NCBI GenBank assembly: GCA_016936665.1
Contig: JAFGXI010000009.1
Span: 86,648-150,647, forward strand
Reading direction: 5' to 3'
Length of the DNA stretch: 64,000 nt
Origin: Bacteroidales bacterium
GTDB taxonomy: Bacteria; Bacteroidota; Bacteroidia; Bacteroidales; JAFGXI01
This document shows, in pieces, positions 11,964-39,100 of the stretch (positions are counted from its first letter, which is position 1; the number at the start of each line of letters is the position of its first letter). The position numbers and the translations under genes were made by a program. A model generated the notes under the pieces. The model saw nothing but the letters and a program-made list of their open reading frames with translations. It searched no databases and had not been told where the DNA came from.

Positions 11964-12000
11964 AAATAGGCTGTACACGATAGTATGGCCTATTTTAATT
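11964..12000 (+). terminator. Terminator hairpin after the aconitase-family gene, overlapping the 3' end of mazG
   Basis: AAATAGGCTGTAC ... GTATGGCCTATTT stem with G-U pairs, followed by TTTTAATTTT. Confidence 0.45.
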
Positions 12001-15450: not shown

Positions 15451-15526
15451 TAATCTGTGTTCTTTTTGCAAAAATAAAGATAGTACGCCTAATAGACTAA
15501 ATTCTATAAAAATAGTTGCATAAAAA

Positions 15527-19785: not shown

Positions 19786-19799
19786 CCCTTAAAATTTAA

Positions 19800-20984: not shown

Positions 20985-20989
20985 GATAA

Positions 20990-22270
20990 TTATAGTAATG
21001 AGTTGTATACTTGAATAACATTATATGCTGCATTTTCCCACTTCAAATGGTCAATTTCTGTTTTGCCATAGGTTTTAAACATTTTGGAAATACCATCGTA
21101 GTGCAAAAGAGCGTGAATAGAGTCTGCCATAGCGTCGATATCCCAAAAATCGATTTTGATGGCATGATTTAAAATTTCCGATACCCCCGATTGTTTCGAG
21201 ATAATAACAGGAACCTGACTTCTCATTGCTTCAAGAGGAGATATCCCAAATGGTTCTGAAACAGAAGGCATCACATAAACATCGCTAATAGAAAAAAGCT
21301 TGTTGACCATTTCGGGTTTTAAAAATCCAGCAAAATGGAATCGATCGCCCATTCTTAATTTTGCGACCCTTTCTATTGATCTATGCAACATATCGCCTGT
21401 TCCGGCCATGACAAACCTAACATTTTTGTCCTTTTGTAATACTTTTTTTGCAGCTTCAATAAAATATTCCGGTCCTTTCTGGAAAGTGATCCTTCCCAAA
21501 AATGTAACTATTTTTTCGTCGAAATGTTTTGTAATGTTAAATTCTTCGAGTTCGACCGGTTCAACAGCATTGTGTACTGTAAAAACTTTACTTGGATCGA
21601 TACCATATCTTTCGATTACAATTTGTTTGGTTAAATGACTTACAGTAATCACTCTATCCGCCTCTTGCATCCCTTTTTGTTCGATATCGAATACCGTTTG
21701 ATTGACGTGCTCTCCACTTCTATCGAATTCTGTAGCATGTACATGAACAACTAAAGGTTTTCCACTGGCTTGCTTTGCAGCAATTCCGGCAGGGTAAGTA
21801 AGCCAATCGTGTGCATGAATAATATCAAACTCATGGTCTTTAGCAATTGTTCCGGCTACAATGGCATACCTTGTAACTTCGGTAATAAGATCGGCTCCAT
21901 ATTTACCCGAAAATGTAAAATGAGTTTCGAACGCTTCTTCTTTAATGTGTTCTTGACTTATTTTAAAAGATTGTTGAATATATTTTTCAAAAATTTGCGG
22001 ATCGAGATAAGGTAGTAAAGTTGAATCGATTTGTAGATAAGTAATGTTTTTCCAAAACTCATCGAAGGATTTTCGCGTCTGAAAAATTGTTACTTTTTCT
22101 GCATCTGTTAATTCAACATAGGTTTTGTCTTCGTCGCCGAACAATTTTGGTACGACAAAAATAACTTCTGCCTTATGTTTAGAAAGTCCTTTAGTTAATC
22201 CATAGCAGGCGGTACCCAAGCCTCCGGTAATGTGAGGAGGAAACTCCCAGCCAAACATGAGTATTTTCAT
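20990..22270 (-). CDS. Glycosyltransferase (GT4/GT5-like, glycogen-locus associated)
   Basis: MKILMFGWEFPPHITGGLGTACYGL, a C-terminal MPSVSEPFGISPLEAM E-x7-E region, and the locus context. Confidence 0.75.
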   Translation of the reverse strand: MKILMFGWEFPPHITGGLGTACYGLTKGLSKHKAEVIFVVPKLFGDEDKTYVELTDAEKVTIFQTRKSFDEFWKNITYLQIDSTLLPYLDPQIFEKYIQQSFKISQEHIKEEAFETHFTFSGKYGADLITEVTRYAIVAGTIAKDHEFDIIHAHDWLTYPAGIAAKQASGKPLVVHVHATEFDRSGEHVNQTVFDIEQKGMQEADRVITVSHLTKQIVIERYGIDPSKVFTVHNAVEPVELEEFNITKHFDEKIVTFLGRITFQKGPEYFIEAAKKVLQKDKNVRFVMAGTGDMLHRSIERVAKLRMGDRFHFAGFLKPEMVNKLFSISDVYVMPSVSEPFGISPLEAMRSQVPVIISKQSGVSEILNHAIKIDFWDIDAMADSIHALLHYDGISKMFKTYGKTEIDHLKWENAAYNVIQVYNSLL

Positions 22271-22366
22271 TGGTTCAAATTTGTGTCGATGTTCGATTAA
22301 TAGTTTACTTTTCTATAAGGTCAAAGTAATATACACTGTGGTCGAACATGTTCCGTTTCATTAAAG

Positions 22367-24322
22367 TTACTTATGGTTATTTCTTAAATCGTTTATAATA
22401 GATTTTATTCTTAAAAGTTCTGCCACACTCCATGCTTGAGAGATCGTTCCTCCATATTGATGTGGAGGATCTCCATCGTATACTTCGGACACTGTACCTA
22501 AACCATGTTCAAGCATATCGGGTTCAAAATTTTTATAGATCTGCTCTACAAAATTGATTGCAGATTCGCCAGAATAAACTTTCAAATAAGCATCGACAAA
22601 TCCTCCTAATAGCCAAGGCCAAACTGTACCTTGGTGGTATGCTCTGTCTCTTTCTTCTTGATTGCCTTTGTATTGGCCTTTGTATTGCTTGTTTCTGGGT
22701 GTTAGTGTTCGCAAGCCTTTAGGCGTGAGTAACTCTGACTTTACTTTATCAACAACACATTTAAAGCGATCTTCCTCTAAAATAGCATATGGCAAGCTAA
22801 CTGCAAAAATCTGATTTGCTCTTTGATTAAAGTTAACATCTTCGAAATTAACAAAGTCGGCCACTCTTCTTTGCATATCGTCCCAAAAAATGGTATTAAA
22901 TGTCGCTTTTGCTTTTGATGCAATGTTTTGAAGCTCTTCGGCTAGTTCTTTTTGCTTATTTAAGACTGCTAACTCAGCTGTGAATAATAACGCGTTATAC
23001 CATAAAGCATTAATTTCCACAGCATAACCGGTTCTGGGCGTAACGGGTTCTCCAAAAACAACGGCATCCATCCATGTTAACCCATGTTTACTATCGCCAC
23101 CGTAGATTAACCCGTTGTCGTGCAATGCAATATTATAGTGTGTTCCTCTTTTAAAGGTGTTAATGATACTTAACATACTATCTGAGAAGAGTTTCCAAAT
23201 GGCTTTTGCATCATTATTTTTAGAGTAATATTGCTGAATACTCCAAAAATACCAAAGCGGGGCATCTATAGAATTATAACTGGCAGCATTATCTGCTCCA
23301 ATGTTTGGAAACAAACCATCTTTAATTTGTGAGCTCATACTTTTAAGCACTTCCAAGCATGTTTTATTATCGCCTATAGCACAAGTTAATCCGGGCAAAG
23401 CAATAAATGTGTCTCTTCCCCATCGGCCAAACCAAGGGAAGCCTGCAATAATCTCGGTATGTTTGTTTTGTACAATAAATTGTTTAGCAGCATGAGTTAA
23501 ACAATTGTCGAGGTCGTTTCTTGGAATTCGTTTTTTAAGTTCAGACTGGTATTTGAGCTTTAGCCCTTTTGTTTTTATTTCTTGTAGCCCGGCGGCTATG
23601 ATAACAGTTTCTCCCTTTTTAATATCGAACTCAAACATTCCCGGCATTAGTAAATCCTCTTGGTATTCGTAACCTCTTGCTTGTTCTTCTTGGTATTCTA
23701 CCTTATAATACCAATTAGGGAAATGTACATACTCTACTTTTTTTGAAGCTTGAATGTACAAACTGTCGTATGCAGGATACAACTTAAATTCGGAACCATT
23801 TTCTCTTGATTTAAAACCTGTATTTACTTCAAAATTAGCATGACTCAATTGATGAAAATTACGAAATGCTAAAAATGGTTTTACTTGTAGCTTTGTAGAG
23901 CTATGTGCTTCTTCCAAAGTATAACAGATTAGTATAGTTGGTTCGTTTTCAATTAATAAATACTCCTTTTTAAGAATTACCCCTCCGACTCTATAAATAG
24001 TGTGAAAATTAGGTTCTGCTTTGAACTCCTTGATGTATTTATGCCCTTTGGGCTCAAATACACCTCCATGATATTTTCTGATACCTAAGTTAAATGCCTT
24101 TCCATTTTGAATGACAGTTTCGTCGACCGATGATAAAAAAACATGTCTGTCTTGATCGATTTGAGGTTGAGGCGCAACTAGTAGACCATGATATTTTCTT
24201 GTGTTGCAACCAATAATAGTGGTGGATGCGTACGAACCAGACCTGTTCGAACGGATAATTTCTTTACTTAAAGAGTACGATAAGTTTATCAATTGACTTT
24301 TGTTAAGGTCAAGAAAGCTCAT
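22367..24322 (-). CDS. Glycogen debranching enzyme (amylo-alpha-1,6-glucosidase family)
   Basis: 651 aa with FPWFGRWGRDTFIALPGL and AYHQGTVWPWLLG motifs. Confidence 0.8.
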   Translation of the reverse strand: MSFLDLNKSQLINLSYSLSKEIIRSNRSGSYASTTIIGCNTRKYHGLLVAPQPQIDQDRHVFLSSVDETVIQNGKAFNLGIRKYHGGVFEPKGHKYIKEFKAEPNFHTIYRVGGVILKKEYLLIENEPTILICYTLEEAHSSTKLQVKPFLAFRNFHQLSHANFEVNTGFKSRENGSEFKLYPAYDSLYIQASKKVEYVHFPNWYYKVEYQEEQARGYEYQEDLLMPGMFEFDIKKGETVIIAAGLQEIKTKGLKLKYQSELKKRIPRNDLDNCLTHAAKQFIVQNKHTEIIAGFPWFGRWGRDTFIALPGLTCAIGDNKTCLEVLKSMSSQIKDGLFPNIGADNAASYNSIDAPLWYFWSIQQYYSKNNDAKAIWKLFSDSMLSIINTFKRGTHYNIALHDNGLIYGGDSKHGLTWMDAVVFGEPVTPRTGYAVEINALWYNALLFTAELAVLNKQKELAEELQNIASKAKATFNTIFWDDMQRRVADFVNFEDVNFNQRANQIFAVSLPYAILEEDRFKCVVDKVKSELLTPKGLRTLTPRNKQYKGQYKGNQEERDRAYHQGTVWPWLLGGFVDAYLKVYSGESAINFVEQIYKNFEPDMLEHGLGTVSEVYDGDPPHQYGGTISQAWSVAELLRIKSIINDLRNNHK

Positions 24323-24433: not shown

Positions 24434-25276
24434 TTAGAAATAGTATCCTAACTTTTTCATTACAGACACATTCTTTTCGTAAAATTCTAAAGCCAGCGTT
24501 TTTGGAATATAATTTTGCCATGCCCCGCTTTTCCCAGATCTGAAAAACTTTGATGATTTAATAGGTTTTTCTCTAAAACCATTTTGGTCTTCTTGAGTTT
24601 TTAGCTGATTAAAACTAGAATGTTTTATTGATGATAATAATTTTTCTTCTTCCAAGGAAATATCACAGAATTCTACTATTGACTTGAACATTTCTTCGGG
24701 TCGATCTAACAGATCTTCGTATCGAATTAGCAAGCGTGGAATTGGAGCATTTTCCCAAGATAAATAATGATTAGACCAAGTATCTAATACCTGTCTTAAT
24801 TGATTGGTTAATTTTTTTTTATTACTTGCCAGTGTCTTTTTATGGTTATTTAAGTTTTGAATACTTTTTTCTATTGAAATATTTGAATGAAAAGCAAAAG
24901 ATACTGCTACATCTAAAGGATGCCTTACAATATGAATTACCCCTTTTGAGATTTCGGTAGGAAATATTGGAAGATTATTATCATTTAAGCTATATGCGTC
25001 ATGCGTTTTAATAAACTTTATACGATTTTCTTCCTCACTCATTTTTATATAAACATGAGGTCTTAAATTATCAATTTCCTCAGTTTTTAAATCTGAAGAC
25101 AAAACAGCAGAATAACGATCGAAAACTTTTCTTGAACTTGAAATTGTACTGCTTTTAATTTTGTTTATATCAACTGGTTGCAAACTTTTTGATAAGTAGT
25201 TAGCCAGAAAAATTCTCACCCAAGTATTACCCGATTTTGGATAAGAAACCAACCATATTAGATTTTTACTAAGCAT
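24434..25276 (-). CDS. PAPS-dependent sulfotransferase
   Basis: 5'-PSB motif YPKSGNTW (25220..25240), a 3'-PB-like IVRHPLDVAVSF, and a C-terminal FFRSGKSGAWQNY. The start ATG shares one nucleotide with the TGA of the upstream kinase gene (TGATG). Confidence 0.8.
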   Translation of the reverse strand: MLSKNLIWLVSYPKSGNTWVRIFLANYLSKSLQPVDINKIKSSTISSSRKVFDRYSAVLSSDLKTEEIDNLRPHVYIKMSEEENRIKFIKTHDAYSLNDNNLPIFPTEISKGVIHIVRHPLDVAVSFAFHSNISIEKSIQNLNNHKKTLASNKKKLTNQLRQVLDTWSNHYLSWENAPIPRLLIRYEDLLDRPEEMFKSIVEFCDISLEEEKLLSSIKHSSFNQLKTQEDQNGFREKPIKSSKFFRSGKSGAWQNYIPKTLALEFYEKNVSVMKKLGYYF

Positions 25277-26172
25277 CAGTCTAAAACTACACTTTCTGCA
25301 TAGAAATTAAAAGAAGACAACAACTTGATATTCGAAGACCGCTCTAATGTTATTAATTTTATTTGTTGTGCTAAGTGCTGTAAAACTTTAAAAACGATTT
25401 CTGTCTTACCAATAGCTATAGGGAATACAGGTCTGTATATTTGAGATTGTAATGCTTTTAGTTTATCGAAGCCTTGTAATTCGGAGTTTGAGAAATGATT
25501 TGAATTTTTACTACTTAAAACTATTATTTTTTTAACAGGTATCGCATAATTATAAAAATGATCAATCTGTTGCAAACGAAATTTAGATATTCCCGGCCTA
25601 ACAGAATCTTCATTACTTATATCAATTCCATATTCTTCTACAACATCTTCCCATATTTTTGATGATGGATATGAAGGGTGGACATTTACTTTCCCTTCTT
25701 TTACAAACAAAGCAGACACATCGTCTGATAACATCTTATATCCTAATTCGACGAAATGTTGTAATAAAGTAGTTTTACCCGCACCAGAAATACCAGAAAT
25801 TAAAACAGCCTCACCTTTATACTCGAATGCAGATGCATGAAAAGGAACAATTTCTTTTTGCAATAAGAGAGCAGCCATTGCTGAACCCAACAAAAATAAT
25901 TCTATCTCTCTATTTTTTGCATCTTTACATACGTCAATAATTATTGTTGATGCATTTTCTATAAGGTAGTTCCCAACATTTTCTACTTTAAGTAGAAACT
26001 GGTGATCGTTGCTTTCAAAGTTGATTCCTTTATAACCAATATTTGCAAGAGTCTTAGGGACGCTATTTAGTACCACATCAACATCGAAAACTCCCTCATC
26101 AGGGCAAGATATTCCTTGAAGAGGGAGTTCTGATCGGATAATTAATCCGTATACTTTATAATAATTTTGCAT
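25276..26172 (-). CDS. HPr-kinase-like P-loop kinase (RiPP/lasso-associated type)
   Basis: 298 aa. The N-terminus YYKVYGLIIRSELPL, the P-loop GISGAGKTT (25768..25794) and LSDD all resemble the HprK C-terminal-domain-like kinases found in lasso clusters, as I recall the family. It starts 6 nt after the PorP/SprF stop. Confidence 0.7.
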   Translation of the reverse strand: MQNYYKVYGLIIRSELPLQGISCPDEGVFDVDVVLNSVPKTLANIGYKGINFESNDHQFLLKVENVGNYLIENASTIIIDVCKDAKNREIELFLLGSAMAALLLQKEIVPFHASAFEYKGEAVLISGISGAGKTTLLQHFVELGYKMLSDDVSALFVKEGKVNVHPSYPSSKIWEDVVEEYGIDISNEDSVRPGISKFRLQQIDHFYNYAIPVKKIIVLSSKNSNHFSNSELQGFDKLKALQSQIYRPVFPIAIGKTEIVFKVLQHLAQQIKLITLERSSNIKLLSSFNFYAESVVLD

Positions 26173-26178
26173 TGCGTC

Positions 26179-27102
26179 TTACCATTTGTACGCACTCTTA
26201 TTAGTGTTTCCAAACTGATAAATAAATATTAACTCGTGTGAACCCTGACTTACATTACCGATATCGGAAAGTGTTATGTCGTAGGCATAACCAAATTTAA
26301 TTTTATCTTTTTGTACACCAACAGAAATGATAATGTCATTCGGGTCGAAAGCAAAATCTGAACGATAACCTAGTCCTAACCAAACAAAGTCTTTATAAGT
26401 TGTTTTTACGTTTAAATCCCACTGACCTTTGTTAGCTTCAATATATTTAAGTAATAAAGAAGGTTCTAATTTAAAATCTGATCCTAACTCAAAAATATAA
26501 CCTCCATGCAAATAATAATGACGGACTTGTCTATTATCAAACATATCGTTCATTAAGCTAACTCTTCTTCCAAAAAGTTGAAAAGAAGAAATACCAGCAT
26601 AATAATTTTTTGCATAGAAATAAATACCAAAGTTAGCATCGGGGACAATAAGCTTTTCGGAACCATTTAGCAATACTTGGTCGTTTGCATCTTCAACATT
26701 TTCAAGCTGACCTCTATCTAAATAAAACTGATATAAAGAGCCCGACAAACCAAAGCCGATTTTCATTTCATCGTTTAATTTAAGGTGATAAGCATAACTC
26801 AAATTCAAACCCGATTTGCTGATTGAGCCTGTTGAATAGTTGAAAATTTTTGCACCAACACCTCCTAAATCTTCACTAATTTTCATGTGAAAAGTTAAAA
26901 ACTGAGAAGATGGAGCGTTATCAATTCCTGTCCACAAACGCTTATATCCAAGAAAGATAGGCATAGATTCGTCGGATCCAACATAACCTGGATTTACTAA
27001 ATATTTGTTTTCAACAGTTTGCGAAAATGAACCCATTTGTTGCGCTCTTATTGAACTTAGGGCTACCGTTAAAACTATGATGATAAGAACTAATTTTTTC
27101 AT
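26179..27102 (-). CDS. PorP/SprF-family T9SS outer-membrane protein
   Basis: 307 aa. Signal peptide followed by AQQMGSFSQTVENKYLVNPGYVG, the family N-terminal motif, with a beta-barrel-like alternating pattern. It lies directly downstream of a type-B CTD cargo gene, which is the usual pairing. Confidence 0.8.
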   Translation of the reverse strand: MKKLVLIIIVLTVALSSIRAQQMGSFSQTVENKYLVNPGYVGSDESMPIFLGYKRLWTGIDNAPSSQFLTFHMKISEDLGGVGAKIFNYSTGSISKSGLNLSYAYHLKLNDEMKIGFGLSGSLYQFYLDRGQLENVEDANDQVLLNGSEKLIVPDANFGIYFYAKNYYAGISSFQLFGRRVSLMNDMFDNRQVRHYYLHGGYIFELGSDFKLEPSLLLKYIEANKGQWDLNVKTTYKDFVWLGLGYRSDFAFDPNDIIISVGVQKDKIKFGYAYDITLSDIGNVSQGSHELIFIYQFGNTNKSAYKW

Positions 27103-27154
27103 ATTATAATGTTTTTAGTTTTGTTATTTTCAGTAACAAAACTTATTCATAGTA

Positions 27155-30100
27155 TTATTTTAATAAAGTTATTGAGCCAGACTGAGCATTATTGCCATCT
27201 TTCAAATCTATCACGTAATAGTAAACTGCAGCAGGCAACTCTTTTCCATTGCTAGTACCATCCCATACTTCGGCATAGCCTATCGATTCAAAAACTAAAT
27301 TACCCCACTCGTTGAAAATTTTAATAGTACAGTCAGGAAATTTATCGATGTTTTCGATAGTCCAATAATCATTTACACCATCGGCATTAGGCGTAAAGAC
27401 ATCCATAGGGGTAATAATCTCTTTATTGGCCTCAAGTGTATAACTTGCTGTTGCACTACAGTTATTATAGTCGATTACAGTAAGGTTATAAACTCCTGAG
27501 TTAATACTCATCAAATCTTGTGTTAAACCGTTTGTTCCCCAGTTAAACGAGTAAGGTACTGTTCCGCCTTCCATCATTATGCTAATAGAACCATCATAAG
27601 CATCTGTTTTAGATTCGTTGGTAACAACGCCTGAAATGATAATTGAGTCTGGTTGAGATAATATTACACTATCAATATAAGTTCCACATTGATCCATAAC
27701 GGAATATTTATAAATTCCTATTGGTAAACTATCTATATATAGATCTGAATGCGAGAAGTTATTCCAAGAGAAAGTATAAGGCTCAATACCTTGGGTAATT
27801 GTAATTGAAATGGTTCCATTGGAATCGTTATAACAAAGAGGTTCTGTGTAAACCGCTTCCACCATTAATGTAGGTAAATTAGAAACATATACAGAATCAA
27901 CCACTGTGTCTTGACACATATCTACCACACTCACAAAATGCATTCCTACACTAAGATCATTCACATTCATTGCGTTATTGCCATTACTCCAAGCATATGT
28001 GTATGGCATTAAACCTCCGTTAACATCGACTTGTGTTTGACCATTGGAGCCTGATGCACATAGCAATGTGATACTATGGTCTTGAAGAGTAGCTTGTAAG
28101 ATAGCAGTACTTATAATTTCAACAGAGTCAATCATTAGCATATTACAAGCATCTGTAATTGTAACATAATGCATACCCGACCATAGAGAATCCACATAAT
28201 TTGTGTCTAACATCGAACTTGTTCCCCAGTTATAATGAACCGGAGCAACTCCGTTAGCAACAACCACATCAATAAAACCTAAACTATCTCCGGAACATTG
28301 CTCTGAGGTATTAGTAAATGAATATGTTAAAACCGGTAAATGATTTATCTCTACAGAATCAATTGTGCTTCCACATACATCGCTAACTGTAACGTACTGC
28401 GTACCAACAGGCAAGTCAGAAGCAATATTGCTTGTACTTGCACTATTCGACCAAGCAAAAGTATAGGGCTGAACGCCTCCGGTCGCAATTAACGAAGCTT
28501 GTCCATCGGCAGAACCAATACAAGATGCATCGGACATATGTTCGGCAAATGCTATTAATTTGGGGAAGTAATTAAACAAAATTGAATCTACAATTTGTGT
28601 TCCGCATTGGTCTGTTACAGTTACGTATTCTGTTCCTACAGATAAATCGTGAGCTATAGAGCCAGTACTTGAGGATGAGCTCCAAGTAAAAACGTAAGGC
28701 ATTACGCCACCATTTGCAACAACAGTTGCAGAGCCATTCGAGCTTGTATCGCACAACAAACTGCCGATATGATTAGTAAAGCCTGCAACAAGTAGCGCAT
28801 TTTCTCCAATTACTATTGAATCGGTAACAGACCCACATGCATCGGTAACTGTAATATAGTATGTATTTGCTGGTAAATTGCTAACCGTATCGTTTGTCGA
28901 AATTGGAGCTCCAGCACTTGGTAGAGTATCCCAAACATATGAATACATTCCAGAACCATTAGTTACAACAACAACAGCTTCTCCATTGCTCGAATTACAA
29001 GTTTCATAACTTGAGAATAATTGAACATCCATAGATGGAGTAACGCCAATTTCAACAGAATCAATTTTAGTTCCACAAGCATCAGTGACTGTTACATACT
29101 GCATTCCCTCTTGTAGTAGATACGCAATTGTTGTATCAAGCTCACCGGAAGACCACGCAATTGAATAAGGTTGAACACCTCCAACAACAAAAACAGATGC
29201 AGAGCCATCTGCATTTCCGGAGCATGTAACATCAGTATTTTCAGAAATACTAGCATACATAACAGGTAGATTCACAACATTTACAGAATCTACTATACTG
29301 ATACAACCATCAGTAACAGTAATGTGATGTAAGCCTATTGCTAAATCTGAAGCGATATAATCGGTACTTGTAGAATTTTCCCATTGATATGTTATTGTAC
29401 TATATCCATTTTGAGTATTCATCCAAGCTTCGCCATCCATACCCCCTGGGCAAGCTATAATAGTATTATGAGTACTTATTGTAGATGTTAAGGTTGGAAT
29501 ATGATCTACAACAATAGTATCTAGAACTTGAGTACCACATGCATCAGTAACAGTAACAACGTGAGTCCCGACTAATAAATCGTATGCTATAGAATCCACA
29601 AAAGATCCTACCGAAGCAGACCATTGATACACGTATGGGCGTTGACCTAAACTTGCTAACACAGTAGCACTTGGCAAAGTATCATAAAAACAGTTTAAAG
29701 TCACTCGATCTGTTAAAGAACTTACAAGTAGAGGATCATTGTCTAAAATTACTGAATCAACATAAACACAACCTTTTTCTGAAGTTGCAGTGAGAGTATA
29801 TTGGCCTACACCTAAGTTTGATATAGTTTGGCTTGTTTCAAGAGTATTCCATAACCATTCGAAGCTGTATCGAACCGTATCAGCAGTAGCACTCGTATCT
29901 GAAAACACATAGGCTGTTACAGAGCCATCGTTACTGCTTGGACAAGATGTCAAATCTGTAACAAATCGAATATCAAAATCATTACACAATTTATGTTTAG
30001 CAATAAAAGCATCTGAAAAGGATGATGTAGTAATACCTAATGTTGTGTCATTACCATAATCAGAATCAAAAGTTAATGGATCCGAATAGTACGTACCTGC

Positions 30101-31429
30101 TATAAATAAATTAAAATTATTGTCCACATATGCCGTTACACTTTGATCATCTGCAGTCCCATAAACTTGATCTGCATATATTGGGTCTGCATTATTATCT
30201 GTAAAAATGTAAAGTACATCTGTGGTTGCAGGAGCAGTTGAGCTCAATGTTTCCGATCCTATATTGATGTCTCCACTAAAGCCTCCGGCAAATAAAATAT
30301 TATTACCATGATATGTAGTAAAGTTAATTTGATTAGTTCCGTCGCCTTCGAACACATGAGAGTTTACATACTCGCCATTAAAATCGTATTTTAAAATAAA
30401 AATATCACTATTTGCTCCAACAATAGGTGTTGATACCGGTGTGGAGGATTCAAAAGTCAAGTTTGTACTATTAGTATATCCTCCTGCAAAATACCCATCC
30501 GGAGTAACAACACTGCTAGAAATATAGTCTAAGCTTGTTCCGTGGATACTTCTAGACCAAATTTCATTAAAGTTTAAATCTGTTTTGTACAAGAAAGCAT
30601 CCTGGTCGCCCGAGGCAGAGGCAGTTAACAAACTTGTTCCTAGTTGAACTTGGTCGGTGAACTTTCCTGCCATATAGTAACTATTGTTGAAGTACTTAAT
30701 ACTAACAATGTTTCCTGCTCCCGTCGTATTAGGGAAAGAGAGATGCTCGTTATCGATATAGTTTCCATCTAAATCCATACTGGCAATAAATACACCCTTC
30801 CCTGTCCCCGAAGTAGCGTTGATAGTCGCTGTTGCTGATCCGATTGGACCAAAATTACAATCTGTAGCAAACCAACCGCTATAAATAATTCTATTTAAAG
30901 AGGGATCTATAGTTATTGCTCCAGAAACACTTCCTTTTGTCCCCCAAGCGGCATTTTGTGCCCAAACTAAATCTCCATCGGAAGTATATTTAGCAACAAA
31001 CACATCGAACAAGCCCGTATTTGTAAGCGTAACAGTATTGGCAGGAGAAGGAAAAGAACAATCGCTCGATTTAAAATCGCCAAGGATATAAATATTGTTA
31101 TTGTCGTCGAATGTAATTGCTTTTGGCACATCTTTTCCTGCACTTTGGATAAAACGCATCCACAATGGATTTCCATCAGGATCGAATTTTGCTAAAAACA
31201 AATCGTCATCTCCGGCAGAAGCAACCACTTGGGTTTCGTCGGTAATTAGAATAATTTCACTTGTGAAAAACCCGAAAGTATAAATATTGTTATCATTGTC
31301 AATAGTAGATTCTATTATCCCAATGTTACTATTTGCACCTCTAATGGCTCTTGCCCATGTCCACTCTTGCGCATAAGAGTTTTGCAAAAAGCTGAGCGTA
31401 ATACTCAAAATAATAAGAATGTATTTCAT
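27155..31429 (-). CDS. T9SS type-B cargo: giant adhesin-like protein (beta-propeller-type repeats, ~11 SprB/HYR-like repeats, gliding-motility-associated C-terminal domain)
   Basis: 1424 aa with a signal peptide. The N-terminal third has SBBP-like repeats (DGNPLWMRF, DGDLVWAQN). It ends in VFTPNADGVNDYWTIENIDKFP...VYYYVIDL, a CHU_C / type-B sorting domain at roughly 27158..27427. Confidence 0.85.
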   Translation of the reverse strand: MKYILIILSITLSFLQNSYAQEWTWARAIRGANSNIGIIESTIDNDNNIYTFGFFTSEIILITDETQVVASAGDDDLFLAKFDPDGNPLWMRFIQSAGKDVPKAITFDDNNNIYILGDFKSSDCSFPSPANTVTLTNTGLFDVFVAKYTSDGDLVWAQNAAWGTKGSVSGAITIDPSLNRIIYSGWFATDCNFGPIGSATATINATSGTGKGVFIASMDLDGNYIDNEHLSFPNTTGAGNIVSIKYFNNSYYMAGKFTDQVQLGTSLLTASASGDQDAFLYKTDLNFNEIWSRSIHGTSLDYISSSVVTPDGYFAGGYTNSTNLTFESSTPVSTPIVGANSDIFILKYDFNGEYVNSHVFEGDGTNQINFTTYHGNNILFAGGFSGDINIGSETLSSTAPATTDVLYIFTDNNADPIYADQVYGTADDQSVTAYVDNNFNLFIAGTYYSDPLTFDSDYGNDTTLGITTSSFSDAFIAKHKLCNDFDIRFVTDLTSCPSSNDGSVTAYVFSDTSATADTVRYSFEWLWNTLETSQTISNLGVGQYTLTATSEKGCVYVDSVILDNDPLLVSSLTDRVTLNCFYDTLPSATVLASLGQRPYVYQWSASVGSFVDSIAYDLLVGTHVVTVTDACGTQVLDTIVVDHIPTLTSTISTHNTIIACPGGMDGEAWMNTQNGYSTITYQWENSTSTDYIASDLAIGLHHITVTDGCISIVDSVNVVNLPVMYASISENTDVTCSGNADGSASVFVVGGVQPYSIAWSSGELDTTIAYLLQEGMQYVTVTDACGTKIDSVEIGVTPSMDVQLFSSYETCNSSNGEAVVVVTNGSGMYSYVWDTLPSAGAPISTNDTVSNLPANTYYITVTDACGSVTDSIVIGENALLVAGFTNHIGSLLCDTSSNGSATVVANGGVMPYVFTWSSSSSTGSIAHDLSVGTEYVTVTDQCGTQIVDSILFNYFPKLIAFAEHMSDASCIGSADGQASLIATGGVQPYTFAWSNSASTSNIASDLPVGTQYVTVSDVCGSTIDSVEINHLPVLTYSFTNTSEQCSGDSLGFIDVVVANGVAPVHYNWGTSSMLDTNYVDSLWSGMHYVTITDACNMLMIDSVEIISTAILQATLQDHSITLLCASGSNGQTQVDVNGGLMPYTYAWSNGNNAMNVNDLSVGMHFVSVVDMCQDTVVDSVYVSNLPTLMVEAVYTEPLCYNDSNGTISITITQGIEPYTFSWNNFSHSDLYIDSLPIGIYKYSVMDQCGTYIDSVILSQPDSIIISGVVTNESKTDAYDGSISIMMEGGTVPYSFNWGTNGLTQDLMSINSGVYNLTVIDYNNCSATASYTLEANKEIITPMDVFTPNADGVNDYWTIENIDKFPDCTIKIFNEWGNLVFESIGYAEVWDGTSNGKELPAAVYYYVIDLKDGNNAQSGSITLLK
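27455..29986 (-). repeat. About 11 tandem ~75-aa coding repeats (SprB-like: C..S.DG.....v.GG..PY.f.W)
   Basis: Recurring motifs RPYVYQWS, ITYQWENS, QPYSIAWS, MYSYVWDT, MPYVFTWS, QPYTFAWS, MPYTYAWS, EPYTFSWN and VPYSFNWG. Each is followed by ...YxVTVTDxCG. Confidence 0.8.
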
Positions 31430-31448
31430 ATTGTAATTTTTTTAGTTT

Positions 31449-31616
31449 TTAAGAACCTGAATAATCCTCAGTTGTGTTATTAACATCCCCAGATAACGTC
31501 TTGGAAATCGATAGTATATTAAGCTCCGGCGTTTTCCAATTTAATTTGTTTATAAGCTCTTCATCAACTTCTTGAATTTGCTTTATGTCTTTGTTTTCTG
31601 AACCTTTTAAATTCAT
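31449..31616 (-). CDS. Candidate lasso-type RiPP precursor peptide (55 aa)
   Basis: Manual translation gives MNLKGSENKDIKQIQEVDEELINKLNWKTPELNILSISKTLSGDVNNTTEDYSGS, from ATG at 31616 to TAA at 31451..31449. The leader has W(-15)xxP(-12)xL(-10)...T(-2). The core is SGDVNNTTEDYSGS, with Glu9 as the only acidic residue at a ring-competent position. A -7 box sits at 31650..31657. The ORF is divergent from the cyclase gene. Confidence 0.6.
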   Translation of the reverse strand: MNLKGSENKDIKQIQEVDEELINKLNWKTPELNILSISKTLSGDVNNTTEDYSGS

Positions 31617-31649: not shown

Positions 31650-31657
31650 CAAATTTA
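31650..31657 (-). promoter_or_regulatory. -7 promoter box (TAAATTTG on the minus strand) for the precursor operon
   Basis: TAnnTTTG match about 33 nt upstream of the precursor ATG. Confidence 0.4.
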
Positions 31658-31704: not shown

Positions 31705-33348
31705 ATGGTTGCCTTAATATGGTCTAAAATTGATTTAGATGCCGAAATATTTGATTTAATACATACTAATCATCAATTAAAAATTTATTTATTGTGGGTT
31801 AAAGAGTCAATTTCAGAAAAAATTGAAATAAAAGACACAAGCCTCCAATATGAATATAAAACGCATATATCTTCTCCATCAGGCATACACTCTATAACTG
31901 CTGACTTACTTAAAAATAGTTGCCAAATTTATAGAGGGGCAAATAGTCAAATACCAATTTACTATTATAAAAACGAGAACATCGCTTTAGTATCTAACAG
32001 CCTGAATGTTTTTTCGAAACTACCTGTTAATCTTACAATTAACTATAAATGGATTGCTTGTGGTCTTTCCGGAATTGCACCCGAAGCCCATGAGACTTAT
32101 TACGAATCGGTAAAAAAACTCCGTCCTGGTTCAGGTTTGCAATTGAGCAACTGGGAATTTTGCATTTCTGATTTAAAAAAAGATACTGATTATCAATTCG
32201 ATAATTTAGAACATGCGCTTTCTCAAACCGTTTTAAAATATATTGGGATCAATAATGGCTGTGAATTAAGTGGTGGGTTGGACTCTTCGGCAATTGCGGG
32301 TTGGTTATCGCACCATGTAAGTGGCAAACAAATTGTTTTAAATGCCTTTAATCAAGGTTTAAAACCGGGAATTCAAAAGCAGTTTTTTCCGTATGTTGAT
32401 GAAAGAAATTTTGCAAAGCTTGTTGAGCTATTCCACAAAAACCTTAAGATTAATATTGTTGATAGCTTCGAGAACAATTTGATTGATGATATCAAACTTG
32501 CAGGCTCCATACTAGCCTCACCTGCATTGAACAGCTTAAGTTATTTTAATATACAACTGTTTCGCGATGCTCGACGATTAAACGTATCTACATTATTTTC
32601 AGGTTTTGGAGGCGACGAAGCGATAAGTGCAAGAACATATCAATACCCTCAGTTTCTAATTTCTCAGCACCAATGGAAAGAATTACTCCAACTTTCGAAA
32701 AAAAATCCAATTTATATTTCGAAATCCATCATTAAATATTTTGTAAAAAAACCTAAATCGATCCCTGCTTGGAAATTTGAAAAATGGGATAATACATTAA
32801 TCACAAACGAACTAAAAAACAAAACCAAGTTCGAACCGTATTTTTTTAACAATTCATCAAAACTTGCTGAAAACTTTGAACAATTCTTATTAAATAAAAT
32901 CAATCATCCTGCCGTAAAATTGAGAGTAGAAGAAAACAGCAGTGTTGCGCGTCATTTTGGAATCGACTATGCTTATCCGCTTTTAGACGAGCAATTAATC
33001 TATTATTACTTAAATATTCCTGATTATAAAAAATTTAATATCAACCCCGATCGACACTTATTTCGACAAGCCATAAGCAAAGTGGTGCCCCCCGAAATTA
33101 AAAACAGAACAGACAAAACCTCTGCTACAATTCCGAATGTGTATTATCGTCTTTTAAATGAAAAAGAAAATATTATCGAAATTATTCACCAAGCAAAACA
33201 AACGGAAATGGCACAAATAATAAATCTCGAAAAAATGCTACTTCTGTTGAAGAGAGCAGAACTAAAAAATAAAGGCATCCATAATGGAAGATTAGATTTA
33301 AAAAATCTGTTTTTCGCATTAGGACTAATTTTATTCGAAAAAAATTAG
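31705..33348 (+). CDS. Asparagine-synthetase-like protein, lasso-peptide cyclase type (no glutaminase Cys)
   Basis: 547 aa. A PP-loop SGGLDSS sits at aa 189-195 (32269..32289). The N-terminus MVALIW lacks the Cys2 of true AsnB. A later FSGFGGDE motif is present. Size and context fit McjC-like cyclases. Confidence 0.7.
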   Translation: MVALIWSKIDLDAEIFDLIHTNHQLKIYLLWVKESISEKIEIKDTSLQYEYKTHISSPSGIHSITADLLKNSCQIYRGANSQIPIYYYKNENIALVSNSLNVFSKLPVNLTINYKWIACGLSGIAPEAHETYYESVKKLRPGSGLQLSNWEFCISDLKKDTDYQFDNLEHALSQTVLKYIGINNGCELSGGLDSSAIAGWLSHHVSGKQIVLNAFNQGLKPGIQKQFFPYVDERNFAKLVELFHKNLKINIVDSFENNLIDDIKLAGSILASPALNSLSYFNIQLFRDARRLNVSTLFSGFGGDEAISARTYQYPQFLISQHQWKELLQLSKKNPIYISKSIIKYFVKKPKSIPAWKFEKWDNTLITNELKNKTKFEPYFFNNSSKLAENFEQFLLNKINHPAVKLRVEENSSVARHFGIDYAYPLLDEQLIYYYLNIPDYKKFNINPDRHLFRQAISKVVPPEIKNRTDKTSATIPNVYYRLLNEKENIIEIIHQAKQTEMAQIINLEKMLLLLKRAELKNKGIHNGRLDLKNLFFALGLILFEKN

Positions 33349-36129: not shown

Positions 36130-39100
36130 TTATTTTCTTATAACTAACTTAACGCTGTATATATTGTCATTTTCAGATAATTTAACATTGTACATTCCTG
36201 CAACAATCGAATAATCGGTTATACTGAACTCTTCTCCTTCGAAATTAACTCTCACTGCATCAGAATAAATTGCCTTTCCGGTATTATCCGTAATATTCAA
36301 AATATATTTCCCTTCAGGCACATTTGCCTTAATTACTATCTCGTTTGATCCTGTTTGGAATGCAACAATACCAAACATTTTTTCCGACTGACAATCTACA
36401 GAAGTCATTGGGTGATACTCTGTTTTCCCATCGAAATCTACTTGCAAAAGTCTATAATATGATTTTCTACCATCGTTTGTATAATCTTCGTAAGTATATT
36501 TTGTTTCTACGTTACTATTTCCTGTACCTTCTATCTGAGCAATAAATTCATATTGATTTAAATCGTAACTTCTTTCAAGAACAAAATAATTGTTGTTGGT
36601 TTCTGTAGATGTAATCCAATCCACTTTTACAAAGTCATCATTGCAAGTAGCATTGAAACTTAAGAGTTCTACTGGCAAAGGCCATCCTGTATCTTTATGG
36701 ATATAGAAGGTTGAAAAACTTGTAACCTCGACTTCTGCATAATAACCCGAACCAATTGGACTAACAGAAAATGTAGCAGCTGGCATCAACATACAATTCG
36801 ACCATGTTCCGGAATCATCACACTTTGTAACTGTTAAATCGTTAACCGATAATATTGTCGGATCTGCCGCTTGCAGTGCAACGAATTCGGCATCGGTAAA
36901 ATAAATTCTTACTGTTGCTGCCCCTTGAATAGAAGGTGTAATTCTAACCACTCGAGGCAAATAGGCTTGAGAATTATAATATTGAACAGCTCCGTAGATT
37001 GTAGCTTCCGCTTCGGTATCGAATAGACTAGTTCCTCCGGCAGCATCAAAAACAGAGGCTATTATTTCGTTGCTATTCGACTCGTTTACAATATAAACCC
37101 AATTATCCGGACTTTCTATGTTACATTCTCCAGATACGCCTGTGCTACTAACAATAGATGCAGGAATAGAAGGTCCACTCACCGTTACAGTCGTTGTAGT
37201 TGTACAACCAAAGGCATCTTCGATGGTTACATCGTAGTCACCTGCAGATAAATCCATAATTGTAGAAGTATTTTCGCCAGAATCCCAATTATATGTAAAA
37301 ATACCTGCTTGTGGAATACCTAAACCATCGACGGCTAATGCAGTAGCTTGTCCATCGTTGTTACCATAACAAGACACAGCTAAACTGTTATCATCAGGGT
37401 GTAAATCACTAATCCCTGCATATACAACTGCTCTTGACGTTGGGCATGCACTTGCTCCACCGGCAGATATTGAAACATCATTAATATACCAACCTGTACT
37501 GCCTACAGAAGCATCGGATGTAAAAACAAATGCGATTTCTAATGTGTTTGCTGTTGAAACATCTATTGGCCCTGTATGGGCAGAATACGCAGATGAAGAC
37601 CCGTAATACAGAGGCATACTAGATGAAGAACTACAAGCATTCCATAAGGGTTCATTATATTGTCCATCGTTACCGGAATAACTACCCGATGCCGGAGTAA
37701 ATTGTACCCACGCACCACCGTCTAATCGGTAAGCAACATAGCCATGGTCGCAACACGATTCTGTAACAAATTTATGAGTATAAGAAAGGGTTACCGATCC
37801 AGCCCAAGTAGAAACATCAATTATTGGAGAGTTAATTATTTGAGAAGAATTGCTGGTTGGATCTACAGCAAACATAGTTCCATTTCCGCCATCGGTCGCC
37901 CATACCCAATTATATGAGCCAATACATGGCGCTGTGGTAGACCATCCTTCTAAATCCGAATCGAAAGTAAAGTTAACATCAGAAAATGAAGGAACTACTT
38001 CTGCTACATAAAAAGAATCTGGAGCCCATAAATTTGAAATATCATAAGAGCTTCCTGTATTCACCAAGGTTCCACCTGTTGCAGCATCGTACCACTCTAA
38101 TGTTCCAACACCATTAGCCAACAAAGTAACAGGGTCGCCGGGAACACAAGCATGATCGTCGTTTACATTTGGTGTACCAATAATGTGTATATGAACTTGC
38201 GCAGTATCTGAGTTACCAAAACCCAAACCATCGTCAATAATAACAGTATAAGTGGTGCTAGCACCCGGTGATACATCTGCTGCCGGATCTAAATCGGTCG
38301 GGCCATAAGACCACGTAACAGTTTGTCCGTCGGTAGGACAAGAAATTTCTACATTATCTAAGCCCCAATGGTCAAATACAAAATCTGTTACTTGTTCTTG
38401 ATGAAATCTAAATTTGGTAGCTGAAGAAGCGGCTAGATCAGGTACATCGAAACAATAGTTGCCCCAACTAACAAAATCGGACGATATGTTTTCAGCAACA
38501 CTGGTTCCTGAACCTACGAATGAGTTTGAAGGGTATTGCGAACCATCCGGGCTAAAATAAGTAATGTCTGTCCATGTTGCGCCATCATCTGTCGACCACT
38601 GTAAAGAGACGCCTTCATCTTCTTCGTCAGGTCCTTCGCAAGGTGTCGCATTGCCTTGAACAGCCATCACAAAATCGAAACAAATCTGGCATTCTTCCGA
38701 AATAGAATAAGGTTGAGTTATTAAATCGCGAGGGAAAGTGGCGGCATCGCCAATCCATAAATAGGACGTTCCATCTTCGGAAGCAATACAAGGGTTATCG
38801 AATGCGGGATTAGCATTAGATTCCCATCCAACTCCCATTGATCCATCATCAAAATTATTATCCATTAAATAACTGCAACTACCAACTGCAGCAATATCTA
38901 CAGATGTTCCTGCACAGATATTAAGTGTATCGTAAATGCCATCGGCTGTAGCCTCTATATGGCAAGGCTGACCAACAACAACGGTCACTGTATCGCATGC
39001 AGAAAAACAAGAGCCATTATCTACTGCAGCATAAAAAGTAGTTGTAATTAGTGGAGAAACATCGATATTTGTTCCTGTACCAAGCAAAGCCCCTTGGCAA

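Follow-up and report, generated by a model that had tools for sequence, protein, structure and literature searches.

The locus under study is intact. It belongs to a Bacteroidales-wide family of lasso-type RiPP clusters whose core consists of a precursor (A), a cyclase (C) and a T9SS propeller protein, and not of an A-B-C-D set. The window, as used here, is the whole 64-kb stretch of DNA that was analysed. We give the complete explanation, meaning family membership together with the mode of working proposed below, a probability of about 65%. That the functional linkage between the peptide locus and its adhesin is conserved we regard as highly probable. The searchable literature yielded neither a paper linking lasso peptides with type IX secretion nor a description of a T9SS cargo/PorP pair linked to a RiPP precursor, and the conserved adjacency suggests that a modified peptide and a cell-surface protein are partners in a way not yet described.

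Five minus-strand genes follow one another in the 5' to 3' direction: the precursor (31449..31616), the adhesin (27155..31429), a PorP/SprF-family protein (26179..27102), an HprK-like peptide kinase (25276..26172) and a PAPS-type sulfotransferase (24434..25276). The spacers measure 19 nt (precursor/adhesin), 52 nt (adhesin/PorP) and 6 nt (PorP/kinase), and the kinase and sulfotransferase genes overlap by 1 nt. Gene coordinates, spacers and identities at the peptide locus were all re-verified as first given using the ORF list and the window; the positions and spacers of the original prediction matched this list exactly, and the dense same-strand gene string that it described was borne out. Its statement that no ORF of 60 aa or more is unaccounted for between 24.3 and 33.5 kb also held, the leftovers being only nested in or antisense to large genes. 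Absent from that prediction was a lasso cyclase homologue (31705-33348, plus strand), divergent from the precursor, which forms part of the locus.

The 55-aa precursor peptide matches the paeninodin family at 21.6 bits (1.3e-4), short of the cut-off of 27, and the HMM of its own family at 1e-18. Its leader contains W27-x-x-P30, followed by nine residues and then T40 at position -2; the W-x-x-P agrees with the RRE-type motif claimed previously. The predicted core, SGDVNNTTEDYSGS (31452-31493), would form a Ser1-Glu9 ring and has Ser at its C-terminus. For a threaded lasso, the predicted five-residue tail behind the nine-residue ring is very short. Thr(-2) is found in 47 of 49 family precursors, Gly2 in 46, Glu9 in 35 and the C-terminal Ser in 40; the window precursor retains G2, E9 and the C-terminal Ser. 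The cyclase, a lasso-type macrolactam synthetase of 547 aa, matched Asn_synthase (4e-25) and the NF033535 lasso cyclase model (3e-27, below its curated cut-off). Its PP-loop (S189-GGLDS) is intact and every family-invariant residue is retained. Compared with canonical relatives, its N-terminal GATase-like domain is shortened by about 90 aa. An AF2 model (pLDDT 82) matches the two-domain AsnB/beta-lactam synthetase fold and includes a low-confidence segment at residues 33-60.

The kinase (K, 298 aa) gave weak Hpr_kinase_C and TIGR04352 matches, with all HprK-like profile matches falling below cut-off, and possesses a Walker A motif (G127-ISGAGKT). Its AF2 model (pLDDT 84.6) matches the PEPCK/HprK fold, and no RRE-like domain was seen in this model. 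It is 30-33% identical to kinases of canonical C-A-K-B1-B2-D lasso clusters, and the C-terminal Ser of the precursor is its predicted target. The sulfotransferase (S, 280 aa) matched PF00685 (Sulfotransfer_1) at 5e-29, with the motifs PKSGNTW (5'-PSB) and RHPLDVAVS (3'-PB), and shares 47-62% identity with counterparts in relatives lacking B1 and B2, compared with 39-48% in relatives that have them. The identities first proposed for both enzymes are upheld by the PEPCK/HprK fold and the Sulfotransfer_1 match.

The adhesin, a T9SS type B surface protein of 1424 aa, comprises a signal peptide (31370-31429), an SBBP-type beta-propeller (about 29990-31369), about 11 SprB repeats of about 77 aa (about 27425-29962; 3e-46) and a CHU_C/type B CTD (27158-27406; CHU_C/TIGR04131, 4e-27/1e-19), all on the minus strand. 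No hydrolase domain was present among the detected domains. The propeller domains have a strongly acidic character (median pI 4.4, net charge about -28); as the peptide is itself anionic, simple electrostatic binding is not supported. The neighbouring PorP/SprF-family outer-membrane beta-barrel (307 aa) matched PF11751 (1e-68) and TIGR03519 (251 bits against a cut-off of 90), and is the best-conserved gene of the cassette (49-76% identity among relatives lacking B1 and B2). The SprB, CHU_C/TIGR04131 and PorP_SprF matches confirm the earlier naming of both proteins. Type B CTD proteins bind their own PorP-like partner (PMC9143113), which is the basis of the adhesin-PorP pairing; by analogy, the PorP/SprF protein is the putative cognate anchor or secretion partner of the adhesin. 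Several further T9SS cargo genes lie in the window.

A TAnnTTTG element, TAAATTTG (31650..31657, minus strand), was read from the sequence with its 5' base 41 nt upstream of the precursor ATG. This element, which we take to be the Bacteroidetes-type -7 promoter motif, precedes the precursor ATG by 29-48 nt in the window and all seven relatives tested, and is found 20-70 nt upstream in 16 of 40 family precursors (2.6% expected by chance). The adhesin and PorP genes also contain it in their 3' ends, at chance level. No terminator-like site was found at any junction of the precursor-to-sulfotransferase string, and a significant hairpin is absent from the precursor/adhesin junction (z = -0.63), as had been claimed. 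The adhesin/PorP spacer contains an AU-rich 10-bp hairpin without a U-tail (27117..27143, minus strand; -8.1 kcal/mol, z = -3.2), which none of 200 shuffles equalled in folding. This hairpin, missing from the original prediction, could be an attenuator or an RNA-stability element. On balance we favour a single transcription unit from precursor to sulfotransferase, with the hairpin and the TAnnTTTG copies in the adhesin and PorP 3' ends leaving room for sub-operonic transcription.

Pfam analysis of 42 large window ORFs, a set without three ORFs of 170-333 aa at 60.6-62.9 kb, found no B1, B2 or ABC exporter. Six-frame phmmer searches of the window with B1/B2 from canonical relatives gave a best E of 0.09, and those with three ABC exporters returned nothing at E <= 0.01. 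Both approaches thus bear out the claimed absence of B1, B2 and D from the window and, with no ABC transporter within 64 kb, the peptide has no visible export route.

A comparison with relatives had been proposed originally. Among contigs encoding a kinase 43-49% identical to that of the window, the order adhesin, PorP, kinase, sulfotransferase is kept in 12 of 12 wherever sequence exists, and the divergent cyclase and the precursor are additionally seen in three complete contigs (L001, L012/L021 and L016). Different housekeeping flanks surround this order (Fe-hydrogenase; GS-III; a MAM/Cleaved_Adhesin protein; GDE; MazG; an amino-acid permease). A cyclase-profile scan of Bacteroidales genomes revealed 80 loci, 38 of which encode a homologous SBBP beta-propeller/SprB-repeat T9SS protein; all family members are MAGs or metagenomic contigs. 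B2 is also found at 32 of these 38 loci, most of which carry kinase, sulfotransferase, B1, B2 and nucleotidyltransferase genes, and none has an exporter beside the cyclase. The suggestion of a genuine, undescribed link between the peptide and a T9SS adhesin is strongly supported as a conserved linkage (38 of 80 loci), this support extending to the linkage and not to its biochemical side.

Using the precursor HMM, an A gene was located directly upstream of the adhesin, within 150 nt in 36 of 48 cases; the others are mostly ORF-calling overlap artefacts or non-Bacteroidales loci. Wherever sequence of a Bacteroidales relative is available, a homologous propeller adhesin comes after the precursor in essentially all cases; one Bacteroidales locus, L067, has K-S-B1-A and no adhesin. 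Adjacency of precursor and adhesin is the family rule, so it was wrong to view the adhesin as an anomaly separating the precursor from its enzymes. This adjacency outlasts both changes of gene order and a switch of CTD type (17 type A loci; 14 type B, 12 of these with PorP). Adhesin divergence follows that of the cyclase (Spearman rho = 0.61), and the adhesin also co-diverges with the kinase and sulfotransferase. Minimal clusters between housekeeping flanks (L024, L039, L077 and L094) contain only C, A and the adhesin, with or without PorP. Cyclase, precursor and adhesin make up the minimal conserved set.

The commonest form of the cluster has two divergent arms, one with kinase, sulfotransferase, B1, B2, precursor and adhesin (then PorP if the CTD is of type B), the other with cyclase and nucleotidyltransferase. 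The window belongs to a B-less clade, monophyletic in the cyclase tree, whose members are closer to it than B-containing loci in all five proteins. Relative to the common form, B1, B2 and the nucleotidyltransferase (N) are gone, the cyclase N-domain is truncated, and the kinase and sulfotransferase genes stand behind PorP. At least eight distinct members of the clade retain the same intact gene set. The presence of the adhesin in essentially all relatives, its co-divergence and its persistence through rearrangement and CTD swaps argue for loss of B1, B2 and N as opposed to gain of the adhesin. Thus, the adhesin is ancestral and not inserted, B1, B2 and N having presumably been lost from a cluster that already contained it. 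The B-less state is likely to be a derived, selected condition.

Two of the original explanations treated the arrangement as accident or ruin. Insertion of an unrelated T9SS cargo cassette between precursor and tailoring genes would suit the window's other cargo genes and the frequent occurrence in Bacteroidota of a self-contained module made up of type B CTD cargo and a neighbouring PorP-like gene (PMC9143113). It is contradicted by 38 genome loci and 12 metagenomic contigs in which a homologous propeller protein comes after the precursor, B1/B2-bearing clusters and type A CTD clusters without PorP included, and by the co-divergence of adhesin, cyclase, kinase and sulfotransferase. Moreover, the propeller HMM matched none of the window's other T9SS proteins, and such accidental linkage retains scarcely any probability. 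Decay of a canonical lasso locus, with drifting genes and a precursor that is no longer matured, is also very improbable. It would account for the missing B1, B2, nucleotidyltransferase and exporter, for a window cyclase just 31-34% identical even to other cyclases of the B-less clade, and for the truncated cyclase N-domain with its low-confidence segment 33-60. However, the reduced gene set is intact in members that are highly diverged, frameshifts are absent from the window, and SGGLDS, GISGAGKT, PKSGNTW, RHPLDVAVS and the family-invariant cyclase residues are present, as are the conserved precursor residues. The AF2 models of cyclase and kinase are confident, and a truly fragmented family member (L070) looks quite different.

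More plausible, at rather less than an even chance, is that the genes for B1, B2 and perhaps an exporter lie elsewhere in the genome and that their products work in trans, an arrangement compatible with a real adhesin link. Their local absence would then reflect arrangement, not mechanistic novelty. The leader W-x-x-P-x9-T, exactly as in B-containing clusters, is found in all B-less members; since W-x-x-P and Thr(-2) are the normal handles of B1/B2, the B proteins may still act in this way. Lone cyclase plus nucleotidyltransferase pairs, without K, S, B or A within 5-10 kb, exist (L029, L037 and L042), and some MAGs hold two clusters (L083/L088 and L021/L054), but L054, which is the second cyclase of MAG JAMOQL01, groups with the B-less clade as well. 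B1 and B2 were found neither in the window nor in the flanks of eight B-less loci, and a B2 profile gave 76 matches among 5.8 billion proteins, none of them on the 219-kb source contig. The only same-study candidate (P0126/L102) belongs to a compositionally different organism (GC 41.6% versus 36.4%; tetranucleotide r = 0.83 versus 0.98). Furthermore, the cyclase N-domain is shortened specifically in the B-less clade, as expected upon loss of partner proteins. We consider it unlikely that the linkage is regulatory or architectural only, with the adhesin exploiting a strong precursor promoter or a shared cue and never touching the peptide. The promoter motif directly upstream of the precursor, the very short or overlapping adhesin spacers, the acidity common to propeller and peptide and the want of a visible export route all fit such a case. 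Yet promoter sharing rarely outlasts repeated rearrangement, replacement of the CTD type and loss of all other accessory genes, and the most reduced clusters are left with the C-A-adhesin triad. The adhesin is missing from Bacteroidales clusters whose cyclase has an ABC exporter beside it (L090, L097 and L099), suggesting alternative fates of the peptide.

In our preferred reading, that of a conserved peptide-adhesin partnership, the Bacteroidetes-type promoter directly upstream of the precursor would drive one transcript through to the sulfotransferase. In the cytoplasm, the kinase would phosphorylate the C-terminal Ser of the linear precursor, and the sulfotransferase would place a sulfate on some hydroxyl of the peptide. 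The leader would be removed after Thr(-2)-Leu by a cellular protease, as for pseudomycoidin, or by a B2 encoded elsewhere, and the cyclase would link Ser1 to Glu9. The product would be a lasso or lariat peptide of 14 residues, very small and highly anionic. The adhesin would use Sec to cross the inner membrane and the T9SS to cross the outer one, and would be held at the surface by its PorP/SprF partner. Peptide and distal propeller may then act jointly at the cell surface, the propeller serving as receptor or display scaffold, or both addressing the same external target; direct contact between the two is a tentative and somewhat doubtful proposal.

Paeninodin-type phosphorylated lasso clusters have the order padeC-A-K-B1-B2-D (Zhu et al. 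2016, reviewed in PMC8498205); their kinase modifies the C-terminal Ser of the linear precursor, and sulfotransferase and nucleotidyltransferase genes have been noted nearby in Firmicutes (PMC8498205). The window shares with them Thr(-2), x1-Gly2, an acidic ring-closing residue 9 and a C-terminal Ser, as well as an Asn-synthetase-like cyclase and the HprK-like kinase at the identity given above. Unlike them, it has no B1, B2 or ABC exporter, a propeller adhesin and PorP stand between precursor and kinase, the cyclase N-domain is shortened, the core measures 14 aa versus 23, and the host is a member of the Bacteroidales. Precedents for lasso formation without B1/B2 are pseudomycoidin, with leader removal by a cellular protease, and a B-less C-A-K cluster of Stanieria cyanosphaera; C-terminal phospho-modification has been proposed to help hold the fold (PMC6993621). 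Neither cluster is linked to T9SS cargo. The psm cluster, unlike the window, encodes B proteins and no surface protein; its PsmN-like nucleotidyltransferase (NTP_transf_5) recurs in B-containing Bacteroidales relatives, whereas the window has a sulfotransferase instead.

In astexin-type proteobacterial lasso clusters, a beta-propeller isopeptidase and a TonB-dependent receptor replace the exporter. The propeller partner there is thought to recognise the folded peptide, and is part of a prolyl-oligopeptidase-type hydrolase acting within the cell envelope. The window likewise combines the absence of an ABC exporter with a conserved beta-propeller-containing partner, but its propeller forms the distal end of a repeat protein that is displayed by the T9SS and looks non-catalytic. 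The adhesin propeller profile also matches the CylK beta-propeller in the PDB (7ron, 7fh6; E = 2e-48) via the repeated SBBP blade motif D-x-F-L-A-K-Y-x-x-x-G-x-x-x-W. This match is limited to the blade repeat; none of the detected adhesin domains corresponds to the N-terminal Ca-binding domain that CylK requires for its alkylation chemistry, and a catalytic role of the adhesin therefore does not follow from the likeness.

As in SprB/SprF of Flavobacterium johnsoniae and PG1035/PorP of Porphyromonas gingivalis, type B CTD cargo in the window lies directly next to a PorP/SprF-family gene, and the adhesin, which shares SprB repeats with SprB, would be expected to be anchored at the surface by its PorP-like partner (PMC9143113). 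In contrast to both pairs, the adhesin carries an N-terminal SBBP propeller that is peculiar to these RiPP loci, and a gliding function is not implied. SprB is also much larger than the 1424-aa window adhesin.

The precursor gene (31449-31616) heads a string of five tightly packed genes on the minus strand. It encodes a 55-aa peptide with a below-threshold match to the paeninodin family, and is followed by an adhesin gene with SprB repeats and a type B T9SS sorting domain (27155-31429), a PorP/SprF gene with profile matches well above curated cut-offs (26179-27102), a kinase gene whose P-loop product matches HprK-like profiles weakly (25276-26172) and a sulfotransferase gene (PF00685; 24434-25276). 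The ORF list and translations gave spacers of 19, 52 and 6 nt, then a 1-nt overlap. Together with the profile searches they bear out the arrangement described in the original prediction, whose observation was confirmed as a whole. Its gene list was nevertheless incomplete: the five minus-strand genes stood, but a divergent cyclase gene (31705-33348), encoding an Asn-synthetase-like lasso cyclase homologue, had been left out. The locus lies between two housekeeping genes, one for a glycogen debranching enzyme and the other for a type III glutamine synthetase. Rfam and tRNA scans gave no match near the locus.

Scans for sigma-70 promoters and intrinsic terminators returned counts equal to shuffle expectation and no site at the junctions. 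As such scans are uninformative for Bacteroidetes, an analysis of the motif TAnnTTTG, which we take to be the Bacteroidetes -7 promoter consensus, was adopted. In the window and in 7/7 relatives tested this element precedes the precursor ATG by 29-48 nt; across the family it occurs 20-70 nt upstream of 16 of 40 precursors, against 2.6% expected by chance. The 52-nt spacer between adhesin and PorP holds a junction detail absent from the original prediction, an AU-rich 10-bp hairpin without a U-tail (27117-27143, minus strand; z = -3.2), which could modulate the adhesin:PorP expression ratio. Judged from the sequence, the genes from precursor through sulfotransferase could plausibly form one transcription unit.

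The peptide has the layout of a lasso precursor: W27-KT-P30 in the leader, nine residues, T40-L41 and then a core running S1...E9. The predicted core, SGDVNNTTEDYSGS, consists of a Ser1-Glu9 ring and the tail DYSGS, and its S1, G2 and E9 parallel the register of paeninodin (A1-G2...D9). NF033524 (paeninodin family) matched the window precursor at 1.3e-4, below its cut-off, and the family HMM at 1e-18. Among 49 family precursors the P-to-T spacing is constant at nine residues; Thr(-2) is present in 47, Gly2 in 46, a C-terminal Ser in 40 and Glu9 in 35, the remainder having Glu8 or Glu10. Core position 1 is variable (G/S/N/D/T/Q/V), Gly at position 2 being the invariant residue, and Tyr is not conserved. 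In five members the sole suitably placed acidic residue is at position 10. The cleavage register may alternatively place Thr at -3 and make the invariant Gly core residue 1, in which case the rings of all members become 7-9-membered, matching the known range. With the Ser1-Glu9 ring the window product is predicted to be a lariat, its 5-residue tail being unusually short for a threaded topology.

The window cyclase is recognisable as a lasso macrolactam synthetase (PF00733, 4e-25), and scored 95 bits against NF033535, below the 525-bit exception cut-off. SGGLDS (PP-loop SGGxDS) is located at residue 189, every family-invariant residue is retained, and the AF2 model (pLDDT 82) matched the AsnB/beta-lactam synthetase fold. 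The kinase carries the Walker A sequence GISGAGKT and scored weakly against curated HMMs, below cut-off. Its AF2 model (pLDDT 84.6) returned PEPCK and HprK/P as Foldseek matches; this P-loop HprK/PEPCK fold, homologues in lasso clusters and a Ser-ending precursor mark it as an HprK-like lasso kinase. A hidden RRE in its N-domain was ruled out, the model and Foldseek search revealing only an all-beta PEPCK/HprK fold. The sulfotransferase scored 102 bits against PF00685 (cut-off 22) and possesses PKSGNTW (5'-PSB) and RHPLDVAVS (3'-PB). With these motifs kept and the AF2 folds as expected, the window enzymes look functional. Kinase, sulfotransferase and nucleotidyltransferase neighbours are already known from Firmicutes lasso clusters, and paeninodin kinases act on the linear precursor (PMC8498205). 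By analogy with the latter, we infer that the C-terminal Ser of the precursor would be the kinase target.

The adhesin begins with a signal sequence, MKYILIILSITLSFLQNSYAQ, read directly, and ends in a sorting domain (CTD) matching CHU_C (94.7 bits) and TIGR04131 (70.5 bits), both above cut-off, as in type B cargo (TIGR04131/PF13585). Its adjacent partner is the PorP/SprF gene 52 nt downstream (PF11751, 232 bits; TIGR03519, 251 bits). As a rule, type B cargo has an adjacent cognate PorP/SprF gene, and retention of type B proteins on the surface by a PorP-like partner has been reported (PMC9143113), which explains the presence of the PorP gene. The window adhesin is thus expected to be a T9SS-secreted, surface-anchored cargo. 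Relatives whose CTD is of type A lack this gene, anchorage to anionic LPS taking its place.

All cluster adhesins start with a signal peptide followed by a homologous domain of ~460 aa, the profile of which matched the CylK beta-propeller (E = 2e-48) by virtue of the recurring SBBP blade motif. The likeness is confined to the blade repeat and gives no ground for proposing CylK-like catalysis. SprB repeats are optional, the shortest members (714-884 aa) consisting of propeller and CTD, which leaves the propeller as the conserved element. An electrostatic fit between propeller and anionic peptide was dropped as support, since the propellers are themselves strongly acidic (median pI 4.4).

The absence from the window of B1 (the PqqD-like RRE, PF05402), B2 (the transglutaminase-like Cys protease that serves as leader peptidase, PF13471) and an exporter held up. 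Pfam scans of 42 large window ORFs, a set that excludes three ORFs of 170-333 aa at 60.6-62.9 kb, detected no B1, B2 or ABC transporter. Six-frame phmmer searches of the 64-kb window found neither B1 or B2 from canonical relatives nor any of three kinds of ABC exporter. No B2 was found in any B-less relative, and a B2 profile had no match on the 219-kb source contig, part of a Bacteroidales MAG. The only trans-encoded B2 candidate with matching source labels (P0126) was discarded: it lies in a full B-containing cluster, and GC and tetranucleotide composition assign that cluster to another organism. The lack of B1 and B2 has precedent: for pseudomycoidin, precursor and cyclase alone suffice in E. 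coli and B. subtilis, where host proteases remove the leader, and a cyanobacterial cluster of cyclase, precursor and kinase without B genes has been reported (PMC6993621). Leader removal without a cluster-encoded B2 would similarly fall to a cellular protease or to a B2 encoded elsewhere. The conserved leader motif suggests that it is still read by something, which counts against wholly B-independent maturation.

Gene order was compared in relatives of the window. Kinase homologues are scarce, only nine being detectable among 5.8 billion proteins. The five closest (45-49% identity) and eight metagenomic contigs obtained by a kinase-profile search show the order adhesin, PorP, kinase, sulfotransferase as far as each contig extends, and the complete loci L001, L012 (= L021) and L016 add the precursor and the divergent cyclase. 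Conservation of the order, raised as a check in the original prediction, was thereby established. No B1, B2 or exporter was found in these kinase-bearing loci. The flanks differ: a Fe-hydrogenase (L001/L012), a MAM/Cleaved_Adhesin T9SS protein with MazG (L016), an amino-acid permease (L010) and a Sortilin/CUB-MazG-aconitase block (L002) that lies 9 kb further off in the window. The three distant kinase homologues examined by context (P0008 and P0009 among them; 30-33%) reside in canonical clusters of cyclase, precursor, kinase, B1, B2 and ABC exporter. A genome scan of representative bacterial species with two kinase-derived patterns found nothing; the kinase-bearing B-less form is either not in those genomes or was overlooked by the two patterns.

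In the window, the Sortilin/CUB T9SS protein-MazG-aconitase block (10154-15471) is separated from the lasso/adhesin cassette by a glycogen-metabolism block (15571-24322), whose genes include a GH57 gene, a GT4 glycogen synthase-like gene, the debranching enzyme and a 1404-aa fusion of glycogen synthase, DUF3417 and glycogen phosphorylase (15571-19785). In L002 the Sortilin/CUB-MazG-aconitase block comes directly after the sulfotransferase, so relatives differ by insertion or deletion of the glycogen block.

When 90 cyclases were arranged in a neighbour-joining tree, the B-less loci grouped in one clade (the window, L001, L016, L020, L021, L054, L024 and L039). Its cyclases measure 547-590 aa against 600-690 aa in the others, the shortening being due to a ~90-aa deletion in the N-terminal GATase-like domain. 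The window proteins resemble those of this clade more than those of B-containing clusters, with identities of 40-49% vs 27-37% for the kinase, 47-62% vs 39-48% for the sulfotransferase, 49-76% vs 41-46% for PorP and 27-52% vs 25-32% for the propeller.

One of the closest cyclase homologues (P0016) is encoded in a 4.6-Mb Bacteroidales genome. On one strand its locus (L018) carries kinase, sulfotransferase, PqqD, Transglut_core3, a 49-aa precursor and an SprB-repeat protein whose CTD is of type A; the other bears the cyclase together with an NTP_transf_5 gene. A cyclase-profile scan of a collection covering 185,579 bacterial and archaeal species, each by a single genome, yielded 80 loci, which were annotated with HMMs built from genes already in hand. 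A homologue of the adhesin N-domain was present in 38, of which 32 also contained B2. The CTD was type A without PorP in 17 cases and type B in 14, PorP being next to it in 12 of the latter. The precursor HMM placed the A gene immediately before that of the adhesin, with a gap of <150 nt in 36 of 48 cases; most of the other 12 were ORF-calling artefacts or Desulfobacterota, Firmicutes-like or actinobacterial loci, and one Bacteroidales exception (L067) has kinase, sulfotransferase, B1 and precursor without an adhesin. No adhesin-type locus had an exporter beside the cyclase; three Bacteroidales loci with an ABC exporter in that position (L090, L097, L099) have no adhesin. The most reduced loci, flanked by housekeeping genes, comprise cyclase, precursor, adhesin and PorP (L024, L039) or cyclase, precursor and adhesin (L077, L094). 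Judging from the adhesin-type loci, these minimal clusters included, what stays invariant in the family is the trio of precursor, cyclase and propeller adhesin. Pairwise divergence of adhesin and cyclase was correlated (rho = 0.61), comparably with kinase (0.79) and sulfotransferase (0.71).

These data bear on two explanations offered for the nested adhesin/PorP pair. Insertion of a cargo/PorP cassette into an older lasso cluster is contradicted by an adhesin behind the precursor across the Bacteroidales family. Decay of the cluster would account for the missing genes, and is at odds with intact motifs, invariant residues and folds and with a reduced gene set kept by at least eight distinct members of the B-less clade. 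We conclude that the adhesin/PorP pair is an ancestral, selected part of the Bacteroidales lasso-type locus family, and that the window sub-family is derived rather than decayed, having dispensed with cis-encoded B1, B2 and nucleotidyltransferase.

Lasso peptides are usually seen as A-B-C(-D) systems making secreted antibiotics or enzyme inhibitors, and we know of none with a role in adhesion, recognition or capture at the cell surface. Such a role is suggested here, the propeller adhesin being the most faithfully kept partner of precursor and cyclase in Bacteroidales, ahead of leader peptidase, RRE and any exporter. Our best guess is that peptide and adhesin act jointly at the cell surface; direct binding of peptide to propeller is doubtful. 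The full reading, which we hold tentatively (probability about 0.3), is of an obligate two-component extracellular system of lasso-type peptides and T9SS-displayed SBBP-propeller proteins in Bacteroidales. A hypervariable, phospho-/sulfo-decorated mini-lasso would be the ligand and the co-encoded propeller its cognate surface receptor or display scaffold, serving kin-specific adhesion, signal capture or the binding of a shared (possibly cationic/mineral) target; in the window sub-family the cyclase would mature the peptide without a dedicated leader peptidase or RRE.

A literature search returned no paper joining 'lasso peptide' with 'type IX secretion', nor lasso with SprB. A BAGEL4 RiPP survey of 1,136 Bacteroidales genomes gave a single LasC region, in Paludibacteraceae, without analysis (PMC10352776). 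Genome-mining rules that demand B or D genes overlook these loci. The pairing is testable and of interest to both RiPP and T9SS specialists: the natural set of B-less clusters opens lasso cyclase function without B1/B2 to test, and the T9SS field gains a family of cargo proteins whose candidate partner is a small molecule.

Several further observations concern the family. One sub-clade with short adhesins of propeller and type A CTD only (L032, L045, L047, L063, L065, L074, L079) has a conserved fused ABC-2 transporter of ~1020 aa (ABC_tran and ABC2_membrane, extended by 260 aa at the N-terminus) 2-7 kb past the nucleotidyltransferase, a possible exporter for this sub-clade. In L029, L037 and L042 (cyclase at ~5.1-11.5 kb of the locus) cyclase and NTP_transf_5 form isolated pairs, the 5-10 kb of upstream sequence lacking genes for kinase, sulfotransferase, B1, B2, precursor and adhesin; the family can thus be split over two loci. 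Two cyclase paralogues (~639 and ~555 aa) lie tail to tail beside CHU_C-type CTD proteins in L038 (8695-13045) and L050 (4420-8264), where no B, kinase or sulfotransferase genes were detected. In the B-containing locus L070 (1452-12509), sulfotransferase, cyclase and adhesin are each split into several ORF fragments; in contrast to the intact window locus, this copy is either genuinely decaying or broken up by indel errors, its MAG being a long-read one. Small DUF559/MTES_1575 endonuclease-like genes and a 23S_rRNA_IVP gene in or beside several clusters (L102, 6142-6492 and 9400-9780; L024, 9172-9651; L039, 9116-9547) hint that mobile or selfish elements are present in the vicinity.

Elsewhere in the window, other T9SS cargo is represented by Por_Secre_tail proteins at 12313-15471 and 58295-59965. 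Two more giant putative surface proteins of 1641 and 1971 aa (36130-41055 and 41682-47597), with a 133-aa ORF without Pfam match between them, contain Ig_7 'CHU_C-associated', Reelin subrepeat, GEVED, BNR_assoc_N and T9SS-associated GBD domains; the cluster propeller HMM matched neither. At 55607-57457 a class II fumarase (Lyase_1 and FumaraseC_C) bears an N-terminal cyclic-nucleotide-binding domain, an unusual fusion.
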